Assembly (NCBI GenBank): GCA_000165345.1
Contig: CM000436.1
Location: forward strand, 960,001-1,024,000
Reading direction: 5' to 3'
DNA: 64,000 nucleotides
Positions 31,467 through 64,000 of this stretch are shown piece by piece (positions within the stretch are counted from its first letter, which is position 1; every line of letters begins with the position of its first letter). Under the pieces are notes generated by a model. That model worked only from the letters and a program-made list of their open reading frames with translations. It ran no database searches and was not told the origin of the DNA. A program made the position numbers and the translations under genes.

Positions 31467-37499
<6,033 letters not shown>

Positions 37500-37545
37500 T
37501 TTTAATTATAAATAATTGCATGCACAAGAATAAATATAAAATAAC

Positions 37546-37598
37546 TGTGTGTGCGAGAGAGAGCGCGCCAACATTGCATGTTTTTTTTTTTTTTTTTT
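37546..37598. repeat. (TG)n(GA)n-GCGCGCC element followed by T18 in a convergent 3-prime intergenic region
   Basis: tgtgtgtgcgagagagagcgcgccaacattgcatg is followed by 18 T. Confidence 0.6.
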
Positions 37599-37905
37599 GA
37601 ATGGAATTGAATTGAATTATAATATAAACTTGAACAAAAGTTATTATTTATTGAAATGAAAGAAACAATTGTAATGCAATTTTTTTCTTTCGTAATTACA
37701 GTAGGAAATATTTGATTTAATTATTATAATAGAAGAAGAAAAAAATTAGAATAGAAAATATATAGAATACCATAGTTAATAAATATATTTATTTAGTGAT
37801 TAATAAAGCCTATAAGATAAATTTAAATTAGTTATTTAATATATTAGCGAGGTTTTGAGCAGTTTATCAATATTGGTATTAATTTTAAACAATTATGTAA
37901 TGGAG

Positions 37906-40839
37906 TTACATTTTGAATTCTGAAGAGAATTTAGAATAGGTTGATCCAAATTGTAAAATAACTGATTGAATATGAGGAACAAGATCATTAATATGAACTT
38001 CTTGGGAAGAAACAGAAGTAGTTTGTTCTGTTTCTGTTTCTGATTGGTTATTATGGATGAATTTGAATTGAACAGTCTCCTTTAAAGCTTCGCTTTCTCC
38101 GATAATAATACAATAAGGAATATTATTATTGGAAGCATAGTCGAGTTGTTTTCTAAGTTTTCCATTTCCTGTAAGGGAAATTTCGCAAGAAATGTGATTA
38201 TCCCATAATAATGACGCAATTTTGAATCTATATTCAAGGAAGGAGTCACCAACATTACAAATAAGTACATCCGTGAAAGATCCTTTTGAGGAGTGATTGT
38301 GAGTTTTACAAGCCTCAAATTTTTTTTCAATTATACTCATAATACGCTCAACTCCAACAGAAAAGCCGACTGCGGGGATATTTTTCTGGGAAAACATTCC
38401 AATAAGCTGATCATATCTTCCACCTGCTGCAATACTACCAACATTTAACTCATTTGAGATTAATACGGCTTCATATATAACTCCAGTATAATAGTCTAAT
38501 CCACGAGCAAGAGAAAGATCAAAAGAAAGATAGTTAATACAGTTGTTACAACTCTTTGTATACTTGAAAAGAGTTTCCAGTTCTTCTAATGCTTTCATAA
38601 TGTTCTTATTTTCCATCATTTCTTGATTAGATTTAATTTTTTCTAAAACATCAAATGGAGTTCCTTTTAATTGAATTATTGATCCAATCTTATCAACAGT
38701 GGATTCTGATAAGCCTTTAATATTAATCATTTCATTTCTCACGCTTTCCCATGGTTCCTTATCAAGTTTGTCAATAGATGAGCAGGTTGTTTTAAATTTC
38801 TCATTGGGTACTCCTGAAATTTCAAGTATACCATCCAAGAGTTGTCTATGATTTATCTTAATCATGAATTGGCCAATCCAATTAGAAAAGGAAGATAATA
38901 CTTGAGTTGCAATCTTAATGATCTCAGAGTCAGCAACCATTGAATCATAATGACCAACAATATCCAAATCACATTGATAAAATTCTCTAAATCTTCCTCT
39001 TGCCATTTGAGGCTCATCTCTTCTGTATACTTTTCCAATTTGATATCTTTTAAGGTGGTCAAGACCAGATGTTGCAATATATCTAGCTAAAGGTACTGTA
39101 AGATCATATCTAAGTGAAAGCTGTTCTCCACCTTGATCTTTTAAGTCGTAAATCAGCTTTGAATCTTCTCCATATTTACCTAAAAGCGTATCTTTGAGTT
39201 CAAATACTGGAGTATCAATTTCTACTGCTCCATGAGCTCTATATACTTCTCTAATCATTCCAAAAACTAGATTCTTAATTGCCATCTTCTGAGGAGTAAC
39301 ATCCTGAGTTCCTTTTGGAATTTTTGGACGTCTAAGAGATTGATTTTGAGGAGTTGTAATATATTTTAATGTTGAATCAAGTTTACAGATTTGTCCATCC
39401 CGGAAAATCTCTAGTATTTTGGAATAAATATTACTTTCAACACCGTTTTTACTTGATTCAAATATTGATGAATTTAATATCAAGTTAATCATAAATTGTC
39501 TAAATTCATGGATATTCTTTGATTCATGAGAAGCTATCGAAACTTCTTTTTTACCTTTCTTTTTAGCTTTCTCAATAGTAGATAAATATTGTTGGTAATT
39601 CTTGTCAGCAAGCTTTTGAAGTGATAAAATACAAATAATTGTAAAGATTTCAATATTCTCATTAGTCAAAACCTTTAATGCATCAATCAATTCCTTAGAC
39701 TCCTCCATTGTAGATATTCTTAATATTATAGATGAGTCAAATTGTCCATTAATCATTTCACTAATTCTAGAGTTAATATGAGACAAATCTTCTATAGTTA
39801 ATGGGGTTACAGACTTTGATATCTGCTCTATATTTAAACCTTGTACTGATATTTCTGAATCTAAAGCAAATTTAGAGAAGTCATTTTCAGAGACTATTTC
39901 TTCCTTAATTGTATCTCTTAAAAATAAATCCAAAAACTCGATACTTGATTTCTTCATATAATTAAGTGAAGATATAATATTCTTAAGTGGCTCCAAAATA
40001 GGCATAATCTCAATATAATCAATCGAATTTTCAATACCTTTTGTACTTGTAGTTACATTACCACTCTTAGCATAGAATCCCTTAATACATTTGCTTAAAT
40101 TTTCTATAGAATTCTGCAAAGTACCTAGTGAACATAAAATCTCAGATAACTTCACTCCAAGACTCTTGTTCTTCCATCTATTCTCCCTTTGAATTTTTGA
40201 ATCCTCTAGAAGCCATCTAACATTCCTTGTAGTTTCAGCTAAACCACCACTAGAAATGGATGATAAGTGAGCTAAAAAGCATAATGGAAAAGACATTGCC
40301 TCCACCAGTATTGCCAAAGTACATTCTCCAAAGCTTTTTAAAGAGGAAGAAATACCCAAATAAAGAGCAAGTTGAGAAACTGTCATACTGAAACCTTTTG
40401 TAAAGGCTCTTGCATCTCTCTTTGATACTTTATGCCCTGAAATTCTTAAATATTCTCCCAGCAAATTAGTTAAAGTCAATTCATCAGTACTCAAATATTT
40501 CACCTTTACTAATGTTGAACCCTTGTTTCTCAATTGCTCTAACAGCCACATCATTAACTTCTTAGATATTCCCTTTCCGTCGATTGCTATTCCCACTGCT
40601 TTAGTTAACATTAATGCTCTTACCTCACTTAAACTCAATTCCTTACCTTCTTGAACCATCCCCATTTCATTGTCACCTGTCCAAAAATCTCCATCTTTTA
40701 ACTGTTCTAACTCTTCACTTTCTCTCAACTTTGGCTCTAACACAAACTCAGATTTATCGCTTGTAGAAATCAATGCAACATCTTCCAAAGAAATCCCACC
40801 TGATCCAATAAAAAAGCTTTCTTTTCCATTTTGTACCAT
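37906..40839 (-). CDS. HARS: histidyl-tRNA synthetase with a roughly 470-aa N-terminal extension
   Basis: Class II motif 2 is LRYDLTVPLARYIATSG...FREFYQCDLDIVG. The HisRS motif is AAGGRYDQL...GFSVGVERI. No kinase motifs are present, so this is not GCN2. Confidence 0.8.
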   Translation of the reverse strand: MVQNGKESFFIGSGGISLEDVALISTSDKSEFVLEPKLRESEELEQLKDGDFWTGDNEMGMVQEGKELSLSEVRALMLTKAVGIAIDGKGISKKLMMWLLEQLRNKGSTLVKVKYLSTDELTLTNLLGEYLRISGHKVSKRDARAFTKGFSMTVSQLALYLGISSSLKSFGECTLAILVEAMSFPLCFLAHLSSISSGGLAETTRNVRWLLEDSKIQRENRWKNKSLGVKLSEILCSLGTLQNSIENLSKCIKGFYAKSGNVTTSTKGIENSIDYIEIMPILEPLKNIISSLNYMKKSSIEFLDLFLRDTIKEEIVSENDFSKFALDSEISVQGLNIEQISKSVTPLTIEDLSHINSRISEMINGQFDSSIILRISTMEESKELIDALKVLTNENIEIFTIICILSLQKLADKNYQQYLSTIEKAKKKGKKEVSIASHESKNIHEFRQFMINLILNSSIFESSKNGVESNIYSKILEIFRDGQICKLDSTLKYITTPQNQSLRRPKIPKGTQDVTPQKMAIKNLVFGMIREVYRAHGAVEIDTPVFELKDTLLGKYGEDSKLIYDLKDQGGEQLSLRYDLTVPLARYIATSGLDHLKRYQIGKVYRRDEPQMARGRFREFYQCDLDIVGHYDSMVADSEIIKIATQVLSSFSNWIGQFMIKINHRQLLDGILEISGVPNEKFKTTCSSIDKLDKEPWESVRNEMINIKGLSESTVDKIGSIIQLKGTPFDVLEKIKSNQEMMENKNIMKALEELETLFKYTKSCNNCINYLSFDLSLARGLDYYTGVIYEAVLISNELNVGSIAAGGRYDQLIGMFSQKNIPAVGFSVGVERIMSIIEKKFEACKTHNHSSKGSFTDVLICNVGDSFLEYRFKIASLLWDNHISCEISLTGNGKLRKQLDYASNNNIPYCIIIGESEALKETVQFKFIHNNQSETETEQTTSVSSQEVHINDLVPHIQSVILQFGSTYSKFSSEFKM

Positions 40840-51061: not shown

Positions 51062-51610
51062 TTAAAATAGAGCACCAGCTCTTTTAGCAGCATTAACAGC
51101 TGATAAAGCAATATTAGGTGTGGAAATACTAACTCCAACAGAACTTCCATTTAATATAATATTACCATGATCTTTATTTTCATCCATCATGGAATCTTGT
51201 GTAGAAATAACTCTTAATGCAGCTTTTTTACTGCTTTCTTCAATTTCACCAGCAAGAATAATTTCATCCAGAATAAAATAAGCTTTGTGGAAATTGAATA
51301 TAAGATCAAGTTCACAAACATTTCCAAAATATCGATCAAGTACTTCAACATAATGATGTATAATTTCAAGAGCAAGAAGTTCATTATCATTTTTATCAAT
51401 ACAAGCAACAAAATAAAGGCTTGCATATCTTTTAACAACAAGTGTGTGCCCTTTCCAATCGATAAAATTACATAATTTACCTTGTCTATTAATGATCATT
51501 TGCGTAACTTCTTTGATAAATCTTTTACGTTCTGATTGTTGATAAGATGAATACCATTTTTCCAATCTAGTTTTGCCTTGTCTGCTGATAAGTAGAAAGA
51601 ACCTGAACAT
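51062..51610 (-). CDS. AP1S: adaptor protein complex sigma subunit (AP-1 sigma-like) with a short C-terminal extension
   Basis: MFRFFLLISRQGKTRLEKWY...VVKRYASLYFVACI...EIIHHYVEVLDRYFGNVCELDLIFNFHKAYFILDE aligns with AP1S1. Confidence 0.75.
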   Translation of the reverse strand: MFRFFLLISRQGKTRLEKWYSSYQQSERKRFIKEVTQMIINRQGKLCNFIDWKGHTLVVKRYASLYFVACIDKNDNELLALEIIHHYVEVLDRYFGNVCELDLIFNFHKAYFILDEIILAGEIEESSKKAALRVISTQDSMMDENKDHGNIILNGSSVGVSISTPNIALSAVNAAKRAGALF

Positions 51611-52071
51611 AATTACTTTAAAAGAAAAGATACATATGTATTTATATGTATCTTTTTTTTTTTTTTTTTAAATCAAGTATGATTAATAAATAATAATTAT
51701 GAATACAAATATATTTTCAATATTGGGTATAATATTGAATTAAGATGAAGGAGAGGGGAAGAGATAAGATTGATAAATATTAAATATATATATATATATA
51801 TAAATGGATAATTAGGTTAGTCTTGGTTTATAATTAATAATATTATGTACAATATATTAATATATACGATCTTTGAGTATTCTTCTTTTTCTTTCTTTAA
51901 ATAAAATAATAATAAATTATTGAATGAATTACTTCAAGAAGTAAAATTCAATGTTGAATGATGGATGGGGGGCAAAAAAAGAAATATATAAGTCAATTGC
52001 AATTAATTAGAAAGTGGGGAAGGAAAAATAATAAATAAATTACATGGGAAAAAAAATAAATTTGAGAGAAT

Positions 52072-61049: not shown

Positions 61050-62777
61050 TTATGACAAGTTGGGGTGTTTTGGAGCATATAATTTAGATTTCTTCTTTGA
61101 GCTTGATCCAACAAATTTGATTTCTCCACTTTTTGTTTCCATAAAACCATCTGGAAGCTCCTCAATATTGTAAGTTTCAAGAGAAGCATTGGAGAATCCT
61201 TGAAATTGGTGTTTTCTTTTCTTTCCAAAAGCAGAAAGAACTCCATTATTACTTGGATTAATTTCAAGATTATCATCATAATAAGCAATAATACTTGAGT
61301 TATTGAGAGCAACAAATATTTGATTAATTTCGTGAGACCATTCAAATGTGGTAATTAACTGGTTATTTATATTAATAAGTTGTTTATGGTTTTTATTTTC
61401 AGCTGAACCAATTAATGAATTTATTTGAAATGAAACTAAAGAACTTTTAGTACGATTACTAATATTTCTATTTTTGGAGTTATTTGAAGTCATATCTTTA
61501 ATTAATGTTGAAGATGTTACGATACTTGTTCCACATTTAGAGAGAATCAGTTTTGAGTGTTCATTTCCATCACTTGGAAGATTTTTAATGGTTTTAAGAG
61601 GATTATTGGCTTTTCTGATATCCCAGATTTTGATAGATTTATCAATAACTCCTCTACTTGCTAAATAATGATCTTGATCTTGATTGTATTTAACAAAAGT
61701 GATATCAGAAATACTATTAATATTTGCATTTTTGTCAAAATGATGTGCATCTCTAATAATAATGGAAGGAGTTTCTGAATATAAATTACCACTTCTTGAG
61801 AATATTTGAATGGATCCATCAGTACAAGAAGCAGCAACCATTTCGCCTAATGAAGAAATACATAAAGAATTGGTTTGAATAGAAGAAATGTTTAGGTTTC
61901 TTTTATCTAAACATTTCATTACAAATGTACTAGGAATATATCCATCAACTCCAAATGGATCACTATTTAGATCAAAAAGACGAATAGTATTATCAATTGA
62001 GCAAGTAAAGAAACGATTATAGTTTATAGGATCCCATTTACAACTAACAATCATATGTGTATGACCAGGATTTGATTTAACAGACTTAACATATGGATCG
62101 CCTTGTACGGTACCGGTAATAAATTCGCCATTACTTTGAAATATTCTACAAATAGAATCACCACAGGCTGCAAGAAAAAGATTTCCATTTTCATTAAATT
62201 CAACTTTTTTTATGGAATGATTTTCTAATGGACAAATTACTTTATTTGGATTCATATCATTTTCATATAAATTATTGAAATCATATATTTCAATTTCTCC
62301 ATTAATCACTCCACAAATCATTCGATTACCTTTATTAGATACAGAAATGGATGTTACAGGTTTTATTTTATTATTTTCATCTATATTTTGATTTGAATCA
62401 TCTTCAGATTTTCTGAACTGAACATATTGAGCTACTGGGTATTCAATCATTGTATTTTTTATCACACTTTCCATTTGTTTCCGCAAGTTAATAATATTGG
62501 CTAAACTATTGATTCCATCTTCTTCATCGTCATTATTATTATTATTAATATTATTATCATTATCAGATTCATCTTTGGATCTTGTTTTAAGTTTTCCACG
62601 GCTTAAACTTTGCTCAATACTTTCATTAATTCTAGAATCTTTAAGATTTTGTGAATTTGATTCATCTGAAATATCTTTATTTGATTTATTATGTCGTTTT
62701 GAAATATATTTTTCATCATCTTCGCTCTGACTTGATGATGAATAGTCTACAAGGGAAATGCTTTTATTAGATTTCAT
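61050..62777 (-). CDS. WD40-repeat protein with an Asn/Asp/Ser-rich N-terminus, 575 aa
   Basis: WD-like blocks include SCKWDPINYNRFFTCSIDNTIRLFDL and IKIWDIRKANNPL. A true ATG is present. Confidence 0.6.
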   Translation of the reverse strand: MKSNKSISLVDYSSSSQSEDDEKYISKRHNKSNKDISDESNSQNLKDSRINESIEQSLSRGKLKTRSKDESDNDNNINNNNNDDEEDGINSLANIINLRKQMESVIKNTMIEYPVAQYVQFRKSEDDSNQNIDENNKIKPVTSISVSNKGNRMICGVINGEIEIYDFNNLYENDMNPNKVICPLENHSIKKVEFNENGNLFLAACGDSICRIFQSNGEFITGTVQGDPYVKSVKSNPGHTHMIVSCKWDPINYNRFFTCSIDNTIRLFDLNSDPFGVDGYIPSTFVMKCLDKRNLNISSIQTNSLCISSLGEMVAASCTDGSIQIFSRSGNLYSETPSIIIRDAHHFDKNANINSISDITFVKYNQDQDHYLASRGVIDKSIKIWDIRKANNPLKTIKNLPSDGNEHSKLILSKCGTSIVTSSTLIKDMTSNNSKNRNISNRTKSSLVSFQINSLIGSAENKNHKQLININNQLITTFEWSHEINQIFVALNNSSIIAYYDDNLEINPSNNGVLSAFGKKRKHQFQGFSNASLETYNIEELPDGFMETKSGEIKFVGSSSKKKSKLYAPKHPNLS

Positions 62778-63188
62778 ATAAATTCAATATAATTAATATT
62801 TATATAAACTTATTGATATATGTATATATATCAATGTAATTCTTACTATTTGTACTTGTATTTAGATTTTCTAATATTGTATATTGAAAGAATATTGAAT
62901 TAAAAATTATTTGTTATTAATATATTTTTTTTTTTAATTAAATTAGTTTCACTTATTCCCGGGTATAGCTAAAATATGAAAATTCTATTAATTCCCCATT
63001 ATTACCCAATAATTAATAAATTTGTAATCGAAAAAAAAAAATATATATATATATATATATACATATTTATATTTATATTTACATTCCCACAATTAATTTT
63101 AAAAAAGTTGGCAAAAAAAGTATATAACAAAATAATTAGCTCATAATACAAATATTTAAGCCATATTATTTAAATCAAATTACTTAAT

Positions 63189-63879
63189 ATGTCTGTATTA
63201 GTTACTGTTGGTACCACCAAATTTGATTTACTAATAAAACAAGTTGATAAAGTAGAATTTCTTGATCAATTTTAGAATTGGATATAATAATTTATGTATT
63301 CAATATGGGAGGTAATGTAAAATTTCAACGCCACGTGTTTTTATTATTTATTGCATGCATGCAATAACAATAAAAACACGTGTATATTACGTAATTGTTA
63401 TTTAAAAAAATAATAATTTTTTTTAGTGGGGAATATGTTCCAATACCAAGAAAAGTTAAACATAGTAAAATTTGTGATAATATTATTGGTAATAATAATG
63501 AGAAATTTCTTGAAATTAAAGCAATACCTTATATGAAAGAGATTATATATTTAAATTATGATCTTATAATAGGTCATGCAGGGGCTGGTACAATACTAAA
63601 TTCTTTAAGAAATAATGTAAGTTTTATTTATTGGATTATATTAATAATAGTCCAATTATATTAAGTTATTCAAGTTAAAAAAAAAATTATTTGAAATAAT
63701 GAAATAATTAATTTATTACTATCTTAACAATAAACTTATTTAACTTAAATACTTAGAGAAAAATGATTGTTGTAATAAACAAATCTTTAATGGATAATCA
63801 TCAAGCTGAGTTAGCAACACAACTCGATAATAATAAATATCTTATTGCTATTGATAATGTTAATGATTTAATTAACACA
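63189..63879 (+). CDS. ALG13: ALG13 (UDP-GlcNAc transferase subunit, GT28 C-terminal domain), partial. Exons 63189..63311 (apparent +1 frameshift), 63427..63616 and 63757..63879. The gene continues beyond the window.
   Basis: MSVLVTVGTTKFDLLI matches the ALG13 N-terminus. DLIIGHAGAGTILNSLRNN|KMIVVINKSLMDNHQAELATQL matches the ALG13 core across a GTAAGT intron. All donors are GTAAGT or GTAATG. Confidence 0.65.
63332..63382. repeat. 51-bp near-perfect inverted repeat CACGTGTTTTTATTATTTATTGCATGCA|TGCAATAACAATAAAAACACGTG inside ALG13 intron 1
   Basis: The arms are reverse complements with one mismatch and one indel. It is centred on TGCATGCATGCA and flanked by CACGTG. Confidence 0.85.
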
Positions 63880-64000
63880 GTAAGTTATCTTAATAATTAT
63901 TAAAAAAATCATTCTAATTTATTAAAAATATTAACAATTTTATTAATTCCTTAATTTCATATTAATTTATATAATATTTCAAACAAACATATAATTTCCA

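Follow-up and report, generated by a model that had tools for sequence, protein, structure and literature searches.

The first intron of ALG13 contains, in Cryptosporidium parvum and in related species, a palindrome of unusual make-up: two CACGTG boxes enclose two complementary inner arms, which in turn flank a core of three TGCA units. This palindrome is real and statistically exceptional, well beyond what chance would deliver, and its architecture is conserved between species with compensatory change, as core and boxes remain while the arms between them are replaced by others that pair again. It is probably a small regulatory element, rather than a chance hairpin or a mobile repeat. Judged from sequence and comparison, we tentatively propose, with a probability of about 0.45, that it may serve as an intronic, promoter-proximal docking element for transcription factors which is kept as a DNA palindrome. 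The core motif itself is known. New are its intronic site, the co-varying palindrome around it and the conserved CACGTG ends, a combination that is undescribed in the Cryptosporidium literature we found.

If the first two exons are joined across intron 1 (Table 1), the product is 97% identical to the annotated C. parvum protein ALG13 (CPATCC_004267) and matches Pfam PF04101. The initial annotation of this DNA, which had named the gene as ALG13, called the intron and pointed to a hairpin within it, was correct in all three respects, given the protein match, the Pfam domain and the sequence at 63332-63382. Positions 63100-64000 of the window (the whole stretch of DNA that was analysed, 64 kb in length) are near-identical to the C. 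parvum assembly GCA_031892065.1, which together with the ALG13 match identifies the source as C. parvum. Two single bases are missing from exon 1 in the window, a C after 63269 and a G after 63278, while both are present in another C. parvum assembly and in all other species. Their absence causes a frameshift with an in-frame TAG at 63273-63275, which represents either an assembly error or a strain-specific pseudogene. Upstream, ALG13 faces a divergent gene that encodes a WD40-repeat protein. Within the 411-bp upstream region common to both genes, none of the four known motif families that were searched for (AP2_1, E2F, G-box and GCACAC) was detected. The intergenic region between WD40 gene and ALG13 also comprises an A-run and a (TA)n quasi-palindrome of low complexity (63026-63085), which is probably a simple repeat.

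Table 1. Features of the ALG13 locus and of the palindrome in its first intron (positions refer to the window).
Feature	Position	Strand	Remarks
WD40-repeat gene	61050..62777	-	divergent from ALG13; 411-bp upstream region common to both
ALG13 exon 1	63189..63311	+	two single bases missing; in-frame TAG at 63273-63275
ALG13 intron 1	63312..63426	+	115 nt, GT..AG; same position in every Cryptosporidium species examined
Near-perfect palindrome, hairpin- or cruciform-capable	63332..63382		51 nt, inside ALG13 intron 1
Left CACGTG box	63332..63337		preceded by C: CCACGTG
Left inner arm TTTTTATTATTTAT	63338..63351		14 nt; sequence varies by lineage, complementarity to right arm kept
Core (TGCA)3, TGCATGCATGCA	63352..63363		two overlapping AP2_1 sites (TGCATGCA)
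Right inner arm ATAACAATAAAAA	63364..63376		13 nt; pairs with left arm except for one mismatch and one bulge
Right CACGTG box	63377..63382		sole box left in C. ubiquitum after exact palindrome deletion
ATTACGTAAT, third ACGT-core palindrome	63386..63395		10 bp, core TTACGTAA, 4 nt past the palindrome
ALG13 exon 2	63427..63616	+	joined to exon 1 across intron 1

The palindrome, reading CACGTGTTTTTATTATTTATTGCATGCA and then TGCAATAACAATAAAAACACGTG, is located about 145-195 bp downstream of the ALG13 start codon. Its parts follow each other in the order CACGTG, TTTTTATTATTTAT, TGCATGCATGCA, ATAACAATAAAAA and CACGTG, and the arms of the C. parvum palindrome comprise one mismatch and a one-base bulge. 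The earlier description as a near-perfect inverted repeat with CACGTG at both ends (63332-63337 and 63377-63382) is thus accurate, while the centre, previously called a triple-overlapping TGCATGCA, needs correction: three TGCA units give two overlapping octamers (63352-63359 and 63356-63363).

Folded as RNA, ALG13 intron 1 reaches -33.3 kcal/mol (z = -6.3) and none of 200 shuffled sequences was as good; RNA folding had been suggested as a check before, and the intron proved stable far beyond its shuffles. The hairpin folded as DNA gave -19.6 kcal/mol (z = -5.9). In a sliding-window fold scan over the 64 kb (60-nt windows, coarse step), the palindrome ranked as the second most stable 60-nt window, and its fold beats the minimum found in each of five block-shuffled copies of the window. 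The other leading stable windows start inside open reading frames and are, by eye, G+C-rich, while all other inverted repeats of comparable length in the window are (TA)n or A-run sequences of low complexity. The motifs are enriched as well: CACGTG occurs four times in the window (0.98 expected) and TGCATGCA three times (0.75 expected). Three ACGT cores per 115 nt are found in ALG13 intron 1 only within the 64 kb, whose mean is about one ACGT core per kb. With up to three mismatches allowed, the palindrome arm has no second match in the 64-kb window, and across the fetched Cryptosporidium loci, which amount to about 70 kb of orthologous sequence, TGCATGCATGC is confined to the ALG13 intron.

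Orthologous loci were fetched via the ALG13 protein or the neighbouring WD40 gene, and each of these Cryptosporidium loci has the intron at the identical codon position. For SRR18693150, the available sequence stops 311 nt upstream of the WD40 gene, so that the intron lies outside it. The architecture of CACGTG, arm, (TGCA)3, arm and CACGTG is found in six sequences besides C. parvum: C. tyzzeri, a meleagridis-like ENA metagenome contig (L011), chipmunk genotype I, SRR31860986 and two assemblies of C. canis. In these six sequences the orthologous intron, which had been recommended for a conservation check, does keep the architecture. The core 12-mer is identical in six of the seven palindrome-bearing sequences and deviates by one base in chipmunk genotype I. 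In contrast to this invariant core, the inner arms are replaced by lineage (TTTTTATTATTTAT in the parvum group, TCAGTTT in SRR31860986, GCAAATATATATATATTTTT in C. canis). The palindromes range from 41 to 64 nt in length, and the inner arm, i.e. the spacing between box and core, from 7 to 21 nt.

The individual carriers differ in instructive detail. Compared to C. parvum, the left arm of C. tyzzeri is longer by one T, and its right arm carries a G in place of an A. The palindrome of L011 is 54 nt long and nearly perfect, with six T opposite six A where C. parvum has five opposite five, which corresponds to a compensatory insertion. In chipmunk genotype I the element is decaying, as its left box reads CACGTA and its core ends in G. 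SRR31860986 combines the arms TCAGTTT and AGAAACTTGA with a right box CACGTA. One C. canis assembly (L005) contains a perfect palindrome of 64 nt with the arm GCAAATATATATATATTTTT, while the other (L009) contains an imperfect one of 61 nt. Both differ in the length of (TA)n and T/A homopolymer runs within the arms, and this difference is either a real polymorphism or reflects the difficulty of assembling palindromes.

Other species lack the palindrome. C. ubiquitum has a single CACGTG that is followed by the same downstream sequence (TATATTACGTAAT), so that the deletion runs exactly from one CACGTG box to the other. The intron of C. felis has retained only a single AP2_1 consensus site (CGCATGCA). 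In C. xiaoi (L006) and in C. bovis/ryanae (L084, L085), only CCACGTAAATGCCAC (containing CCACGTA) is kept, at the position of the left box. Thus a CCACGT[GA] box is present without a palindrome in C. ubiquitum, C. xiaoi and C. bovis/ryanae. C. tyzzeri, chipmunk genotype I, C. ubiquitum and SRR31860986 have retained the neighbouring ATTACGTAAT with the form ATTACGT[A/C]AT, unlike L011 and C. canis; the motif could represent an additional binding site or be situated close to the branch point. A protein search with C. xiaoi ALG13, aimed at C. muris, C. andersoni and C. baileyi, delivered no further Cryptosporidium ALG13, and a scan of JGI metagenomes with the ALG13 protein gave 72 loci, the best with 41% identity over the full length and none from Cryptosporidium.

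To polarise these changes, we built a neighbour-joining tree from the adjacent WD40 protein and rooted it with C. bovis/ryanae as outgroup. Its topology is ((((parvum, tyzzeri), chipmunk), (SRR18693150, ubiquitum)), (canis, SRR31860986)), with C. felis outside. Based on this tree, the palindrome is at least as old as the ancestor of the parvum-canis clade. C. ubiquitum branches from within the carriers, so that the missing palindrome reflects a loss there instead of an empty site. The CCACGT box, in turn, is common to the group of C. bovis, C. xiaoi and C. ryanae and consequently predates the palindrome. Dispersed copies and a lack of orthologous conservation were the two outcomes that the initial annotation had named as speaking against a functional element, and the results of both checks, the copy search covering the window and the fetched loci, favour a real one.

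The complementarity of the arms exceeds that of composition-matched shuffles in three lineages. When the right inner arm was shuffled while boxes and core were held fixed, a hairpin as stable as the natural one resulted in 6 of 1000 trials for C. parvum, 4 of 1000 for L011, 18 of 1000 for SRR31860986 and 0 of 1000 for C. canis. In a structural alignment, which was made by hand with bulges and length differences padded with N and which, being fitted to the stem, yields figures that lean towards a stem, 97% of the cells form standard pairs, compared to 83% in shuffles, and 11 pairs are changed on both sides; none of 500 shuffles attained these values. Sliding the partner columns by 1-3 positions lowers the pairing to 30-59%. 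Changes on one side only led to three U-G cells vs. five non-pairing cells, so that no wobble bias is apparent. Independent of any alignment, the three unrelated arm sequences are each self-complementary.

The core matches the consensus of the motif AP2_1, [T/C]GCATGC[A/G] or TGCATGCA (PMC3734150), exactly and twice in overlap. In protein-binding microarrays, TGCATGCA is bound by the C. parvum AP2 domains cgd2_3490 and cgd1_3520, while two further AP2 domains bind AP2_1 in related form, and the motif is over-represented in C. parvum non-coding DNA (PMC3734150, PMC4117751, PMC12246861). These specificities are in-vitro microarray data (PMC4117751). In Toxoplasma, AP2XII-8 engages the same motif, which is enriched within 1 kb of transcription start sites (PMC11358496). 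The link between the core and ApiAP2 factors, initially drawn from the motif, thus finds support in the literature on C. parvum itself. AP2_1 is also bound by PF14_0633 (AP2-Sp/AP2-EXP) of P. falciparum, and in T. gondii the motif of AP2XII-8 is the TRP-2 motif. At the ALG13 locus, the AP2_1 core occupies positions +163 to +174 relative to the start codon, inside intron 1, whereas the 411-bp upstream region has no copy. From -700 to +1500 of the ALG13 start, AP2_1 occurs in the intron only, in every species having one: besides C. parvum, these are C. tyzzeri, L011, chipmunk genotype I, SRR31860986, C. canis (both assemblies) and C. felis. Intron 1 of C. ubiquitum, C. xiaoi and C. bovis/ryanae contains no AP2_1, and for C. 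ubiquitum this holds true for the entire range from -700 to +1500. The element is therefore similar to AP2_1 elements in its exact core match, its location in non-coding DNA near the 5' end of a gene and its position conserved across species, whereas it differs from them by being intronic and by residing in a palindrome of 41-64 nt with co-varying arms and CACGTG flanks.

For the boxes, the hexamers CACGTG are present as had been stated, but their designation as E-box or G-box expresses a resemblance only: the motifs described for Cryptosporidium do not include CACGTG, and we found no cognate factor from Cryptosporidium or any apicomplexan in the literature. In plants, fungi and animals, palindromes with an ACGT core (G-box/E-box CACGTG, A-box TACGTA) are bound by bZIP or bHLH dimers. 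With two CACGTG and one TTACGTAA within 115 nt, the ALG13 intron resembles such sites, while the likeness is one of sequence and no such motif is described in the Cryptosporidium and apicomplexan literature we found. Elsewhere in the window, an 18-bp perfect palindrome (ATACCGGCATGCCGGTAT, 11951-11968) is centred on the AP2_1 core GCATGC. This site is intergenic, about 220 nt upstream of an open reading frame starting at 12185, and is the second AP2_1 core in an extended palindrome; a test for extended palindromy around GCATGC sites was informative for this site only.

If the ALG13 palindrome is a docking element for transcription factors, it would act as duplex DNA and offer an intragenic platform close to the promoter. 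Its (TGCA)3 core would be occupied by ApiAP2 proteins such as cgd2_3490 and cgd1_3520, and its flanking CACGTG boxes by a putative factor recognising ACGT cores. Jointly, the bound factors might control how strongly ALG13, or the divergent pair of WD40 gene and ALG13, is transcribed. The inner arms would carry no sequence information and could vary in length, yet they would stay complementary, either because a cruciform-capable form aids function or because the palindrome is renewed by intrastrand templated repair. Here we infer the binding of proteins at the locus, an effect on transcription and the reason for the complementarity of the arms. Several observations count for such a docking site: the core is invariant while the inner arms are replaced, C. 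felis retains AP2_1 without a palindrome, and AP2_1 is confined to the intron within -700 to +1500. The in-vitro binding of AP2_1 and its over-representation in non-coding DNA point in the same direction, as do the self-palindromic boxes together with the survival of CCACGT[GA] without a hairpin, the equal folding of both strands and the second GCATGC-centred palindrome at 11951-11968. However, a pure binding-site model leaves the complementarity of the arms unexplained, and the spacing of 7-21 nt between box and core rules out a rigid composite site. Furthermore, the element is dispensable, as both C. ubiquitum and C. felis have lost it, C. ubiquitum being left with no AP2_1 site near the gene, and as it is decaying in chipmunk genotype I, the site is intronic whereas AP2_1 was defined in upstream regions, and the literature knows no CACGTG factor in Cryptosporidium. 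Among the options offered by the initial annotation, a regulatory element is nevertheless the best supported one, although not a proven one.

Sense and antisense strand fold within about 1 kcal/mol of each other in most species, and in C. parvum the antisense strand even folds better than the sense strand (-26.3 vs. -23.0 kcal/mol). Together with the lack of a G-U excess, this equality argues for a symmetry at the DNA level and not for an RNA-specific structure; consequently, the structured RNA that had been considered for the intron is not favoured. Both end boxes are self-palindromic hexamers, and sites bound by dimers on duplex DNA are usually palindromic. As the CCACGT[GA] box survives without the hairpin, its constraint is independent of the stem. 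The symmetry, the self-palindromic boxes and the survival of box and AP2_1 site in stemless species thus favour boxes that are constrained as duplex DNA. These points also speak against the idea that a hairpin of the pre-mRNA acts in splicing, which we regard as unlikely. Two versions could be envisioned: the stem might loop out the middle of the intron and bring the 5' splice site closer to branch point and 3' splice site, or the extension GUAAUGUA:UAUAUUAC might sequester the 5' splice site and thereby tune splicing efficiency or intron retention. In line with this, the whole intron is highly structured (z = -6.3), its 5' splice site (63312-63319) is predicted to pair with 63383-63390, and the complementarity is conserved with compensatory changes (97% paired in the hand-fitted alignment). 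In addition, the introns measure 44-79 nt minus the hairpin, while hairpin-free orthologous introns measure 68-87 nt. The element also resembles yeast intron structures that bridge 5' splice site and branch point, since it forms a stable stem between the 5' splice site and the likely branch region, with conserved complementarity. Unlike the yeast stems, however, it is strand-symmetric, it has self-palindromic boxes and the next intron is longer and unstructured: ALG13 intron 2 comprises 140 nt with z = -1.2 on a stretch of 135 nt, so that intron length alone does not call for a hairpin. Moreover, a stem could do without an invariant tip of (TGCA)3 and without ends of self-palindromic CACGTG, CCACGT box and AP2_1 site persist in stemless species, and the pairing of the 5' splice site is not retained in C. 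canis. A stable small RNA, by which the excised hairpin would accumulate and fulfill a function of its own, appears very improbable to us. The hairpin is very stable indeed, and 23 intronic non-coding RNAs, suggested to help retain introns, were described in C. parvum by sRNA-seq and comparison (PMC9465071). However, the same study detected no miRNAs in C. parvum (PMC9465071), no C/D or H/ACA boxes are evident from reading the intron by eye, and the strand asymmetry expected of an RNA is missing. A scan of 62700-64000 against Rfam with permissive thresholds delivered nothing at gathering score and miRNA-like hairpins only, the best being two minus-strand hits, mir-3047 with 28.5 bits (threshold 53) and mir-137 with 22.8 bits (threshold 56.7); as they are sub-threshold, we rejected them as chance matches. 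An element that depends on its structure, either a DNA cruciform or an intron hairpin RNA, recognised at the invariant (TGCA)3 tip and the CACGTG:CACGTG base, seems rather improbable as well. The stem between tip and base would then be free in sequence and variable in length. If true, the palindrome would be a structure-specific cis-element or processing substrate of a kind undescribed in Apicomplexa, in a parasite that lacks RNAi.

On the DNA side, the palindrome could also be functionless, perpetuating itself while slowly being lost. We think this a serious though not a likely explanation. A single inverted duplication around a pre-existing palindromic TGCATGCA in the parvum-canis ancestor would have created it and intrastrand template switching would keep it symmetric, while functional parts, if any, would be the pre-existing motifs only. 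Losses and decay in several lineages are in accordance with such a history, as is the C. ubiquitum deletion between CACGTG direct repeats, a classic product of hairpin slippage. Compared to the nearly perfect L011, C. parvum and C. tyzzeri have a right arm in decay, (TA)n and homopolymer runs are of unequal length in the two C. canis assemblies, and both strands are equivalent. In this regard the element resembles AT-rich palindromes that form cruciforms: it is perfect or nearly so, free of a spacer, precisely deleted in one lineage and polymorphic in length between assemblies. Unlike such fragile palindromes, however, it has outlasted several speciations with centre and ends conserved, which is unexpected for an unstable and neutral sequence. 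Core and end boxes are constant, with few one-base exceptions, despite the full turnover of the arms, and this is not what neutral drift and homogenisation would predict. Besides, the boundaries of the palindrome are equal in distant species, and complementarity is found in both branches of the clade (the parvum group on the one hand, C. canis and SRR31860986 on the other) despite decay at short range. The remnant of a foldback or MITE-like transposon, with CACGTG as target-site duplication, is hardly credible in our view. Inverted-repeat arms, identical end hexamers and the exact absence in C. ubiquitum would fit, and the self-complementary CACGTG at both ends can equally be seen as the outermost part of the arms or as a target-site duplication. 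In contrast, the MITE-like repeat family that had been proposed is unsupported, as the 64-kb window and the roughly 70 kb of orthologous loci comprise no further copy, and the C. ubiquitum state is a loss nested among carriers. Same position and same boundaries in all carriers argue for vertical descent. Cryptosporidium genomes are not known to carry transposable elements.

Little is understood of how Cryptosporidium regulates its genes, with a handful of motifs known and almost no validated target sites. The ALG13 intron provides a compact case of natural mutagenesis, in which AP2_1 core and CACGTG stay constant while the arms vary and nevertheless pair, and with C. ubiquitum and C. felis natural knock-outs of the palindrome are at hand. 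Since CRISPR editing is available in C. parvum, the locus could be employed to test whether AP2_1 acts from introns, whether CACGTG is a genuine Cryptosporidium motif and which role palindromic DNA or RNA structure plays. Even if the palindrome is merely tolerated, it still demonstrates how such sequences persist in, and are excised from, a very compact genome.

Two further sites in the window deserve mention. At 37517-37600, known promoter motifs of C. parvum are densely clustered, with TGCATGCA, GTGTGTGC, GAGAGAGAG, GCGCGCC, TTGCATG and a T18 run. It is located between the stop codons of the convergent open reading frames 31467..37499 (+) and 37906..40839 (-), a position that suggests an unannotated small or spliced gene, or the promoter of a non-coding RNA. 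At 51620-51661, an AT-rich hairpin with arms of 18 nt (94% complementary) and a loop of 6 nt is immediately followed by a T18 run; it is intergenic and adjoins the start of the minus-strand open reading frame 51062..51610.
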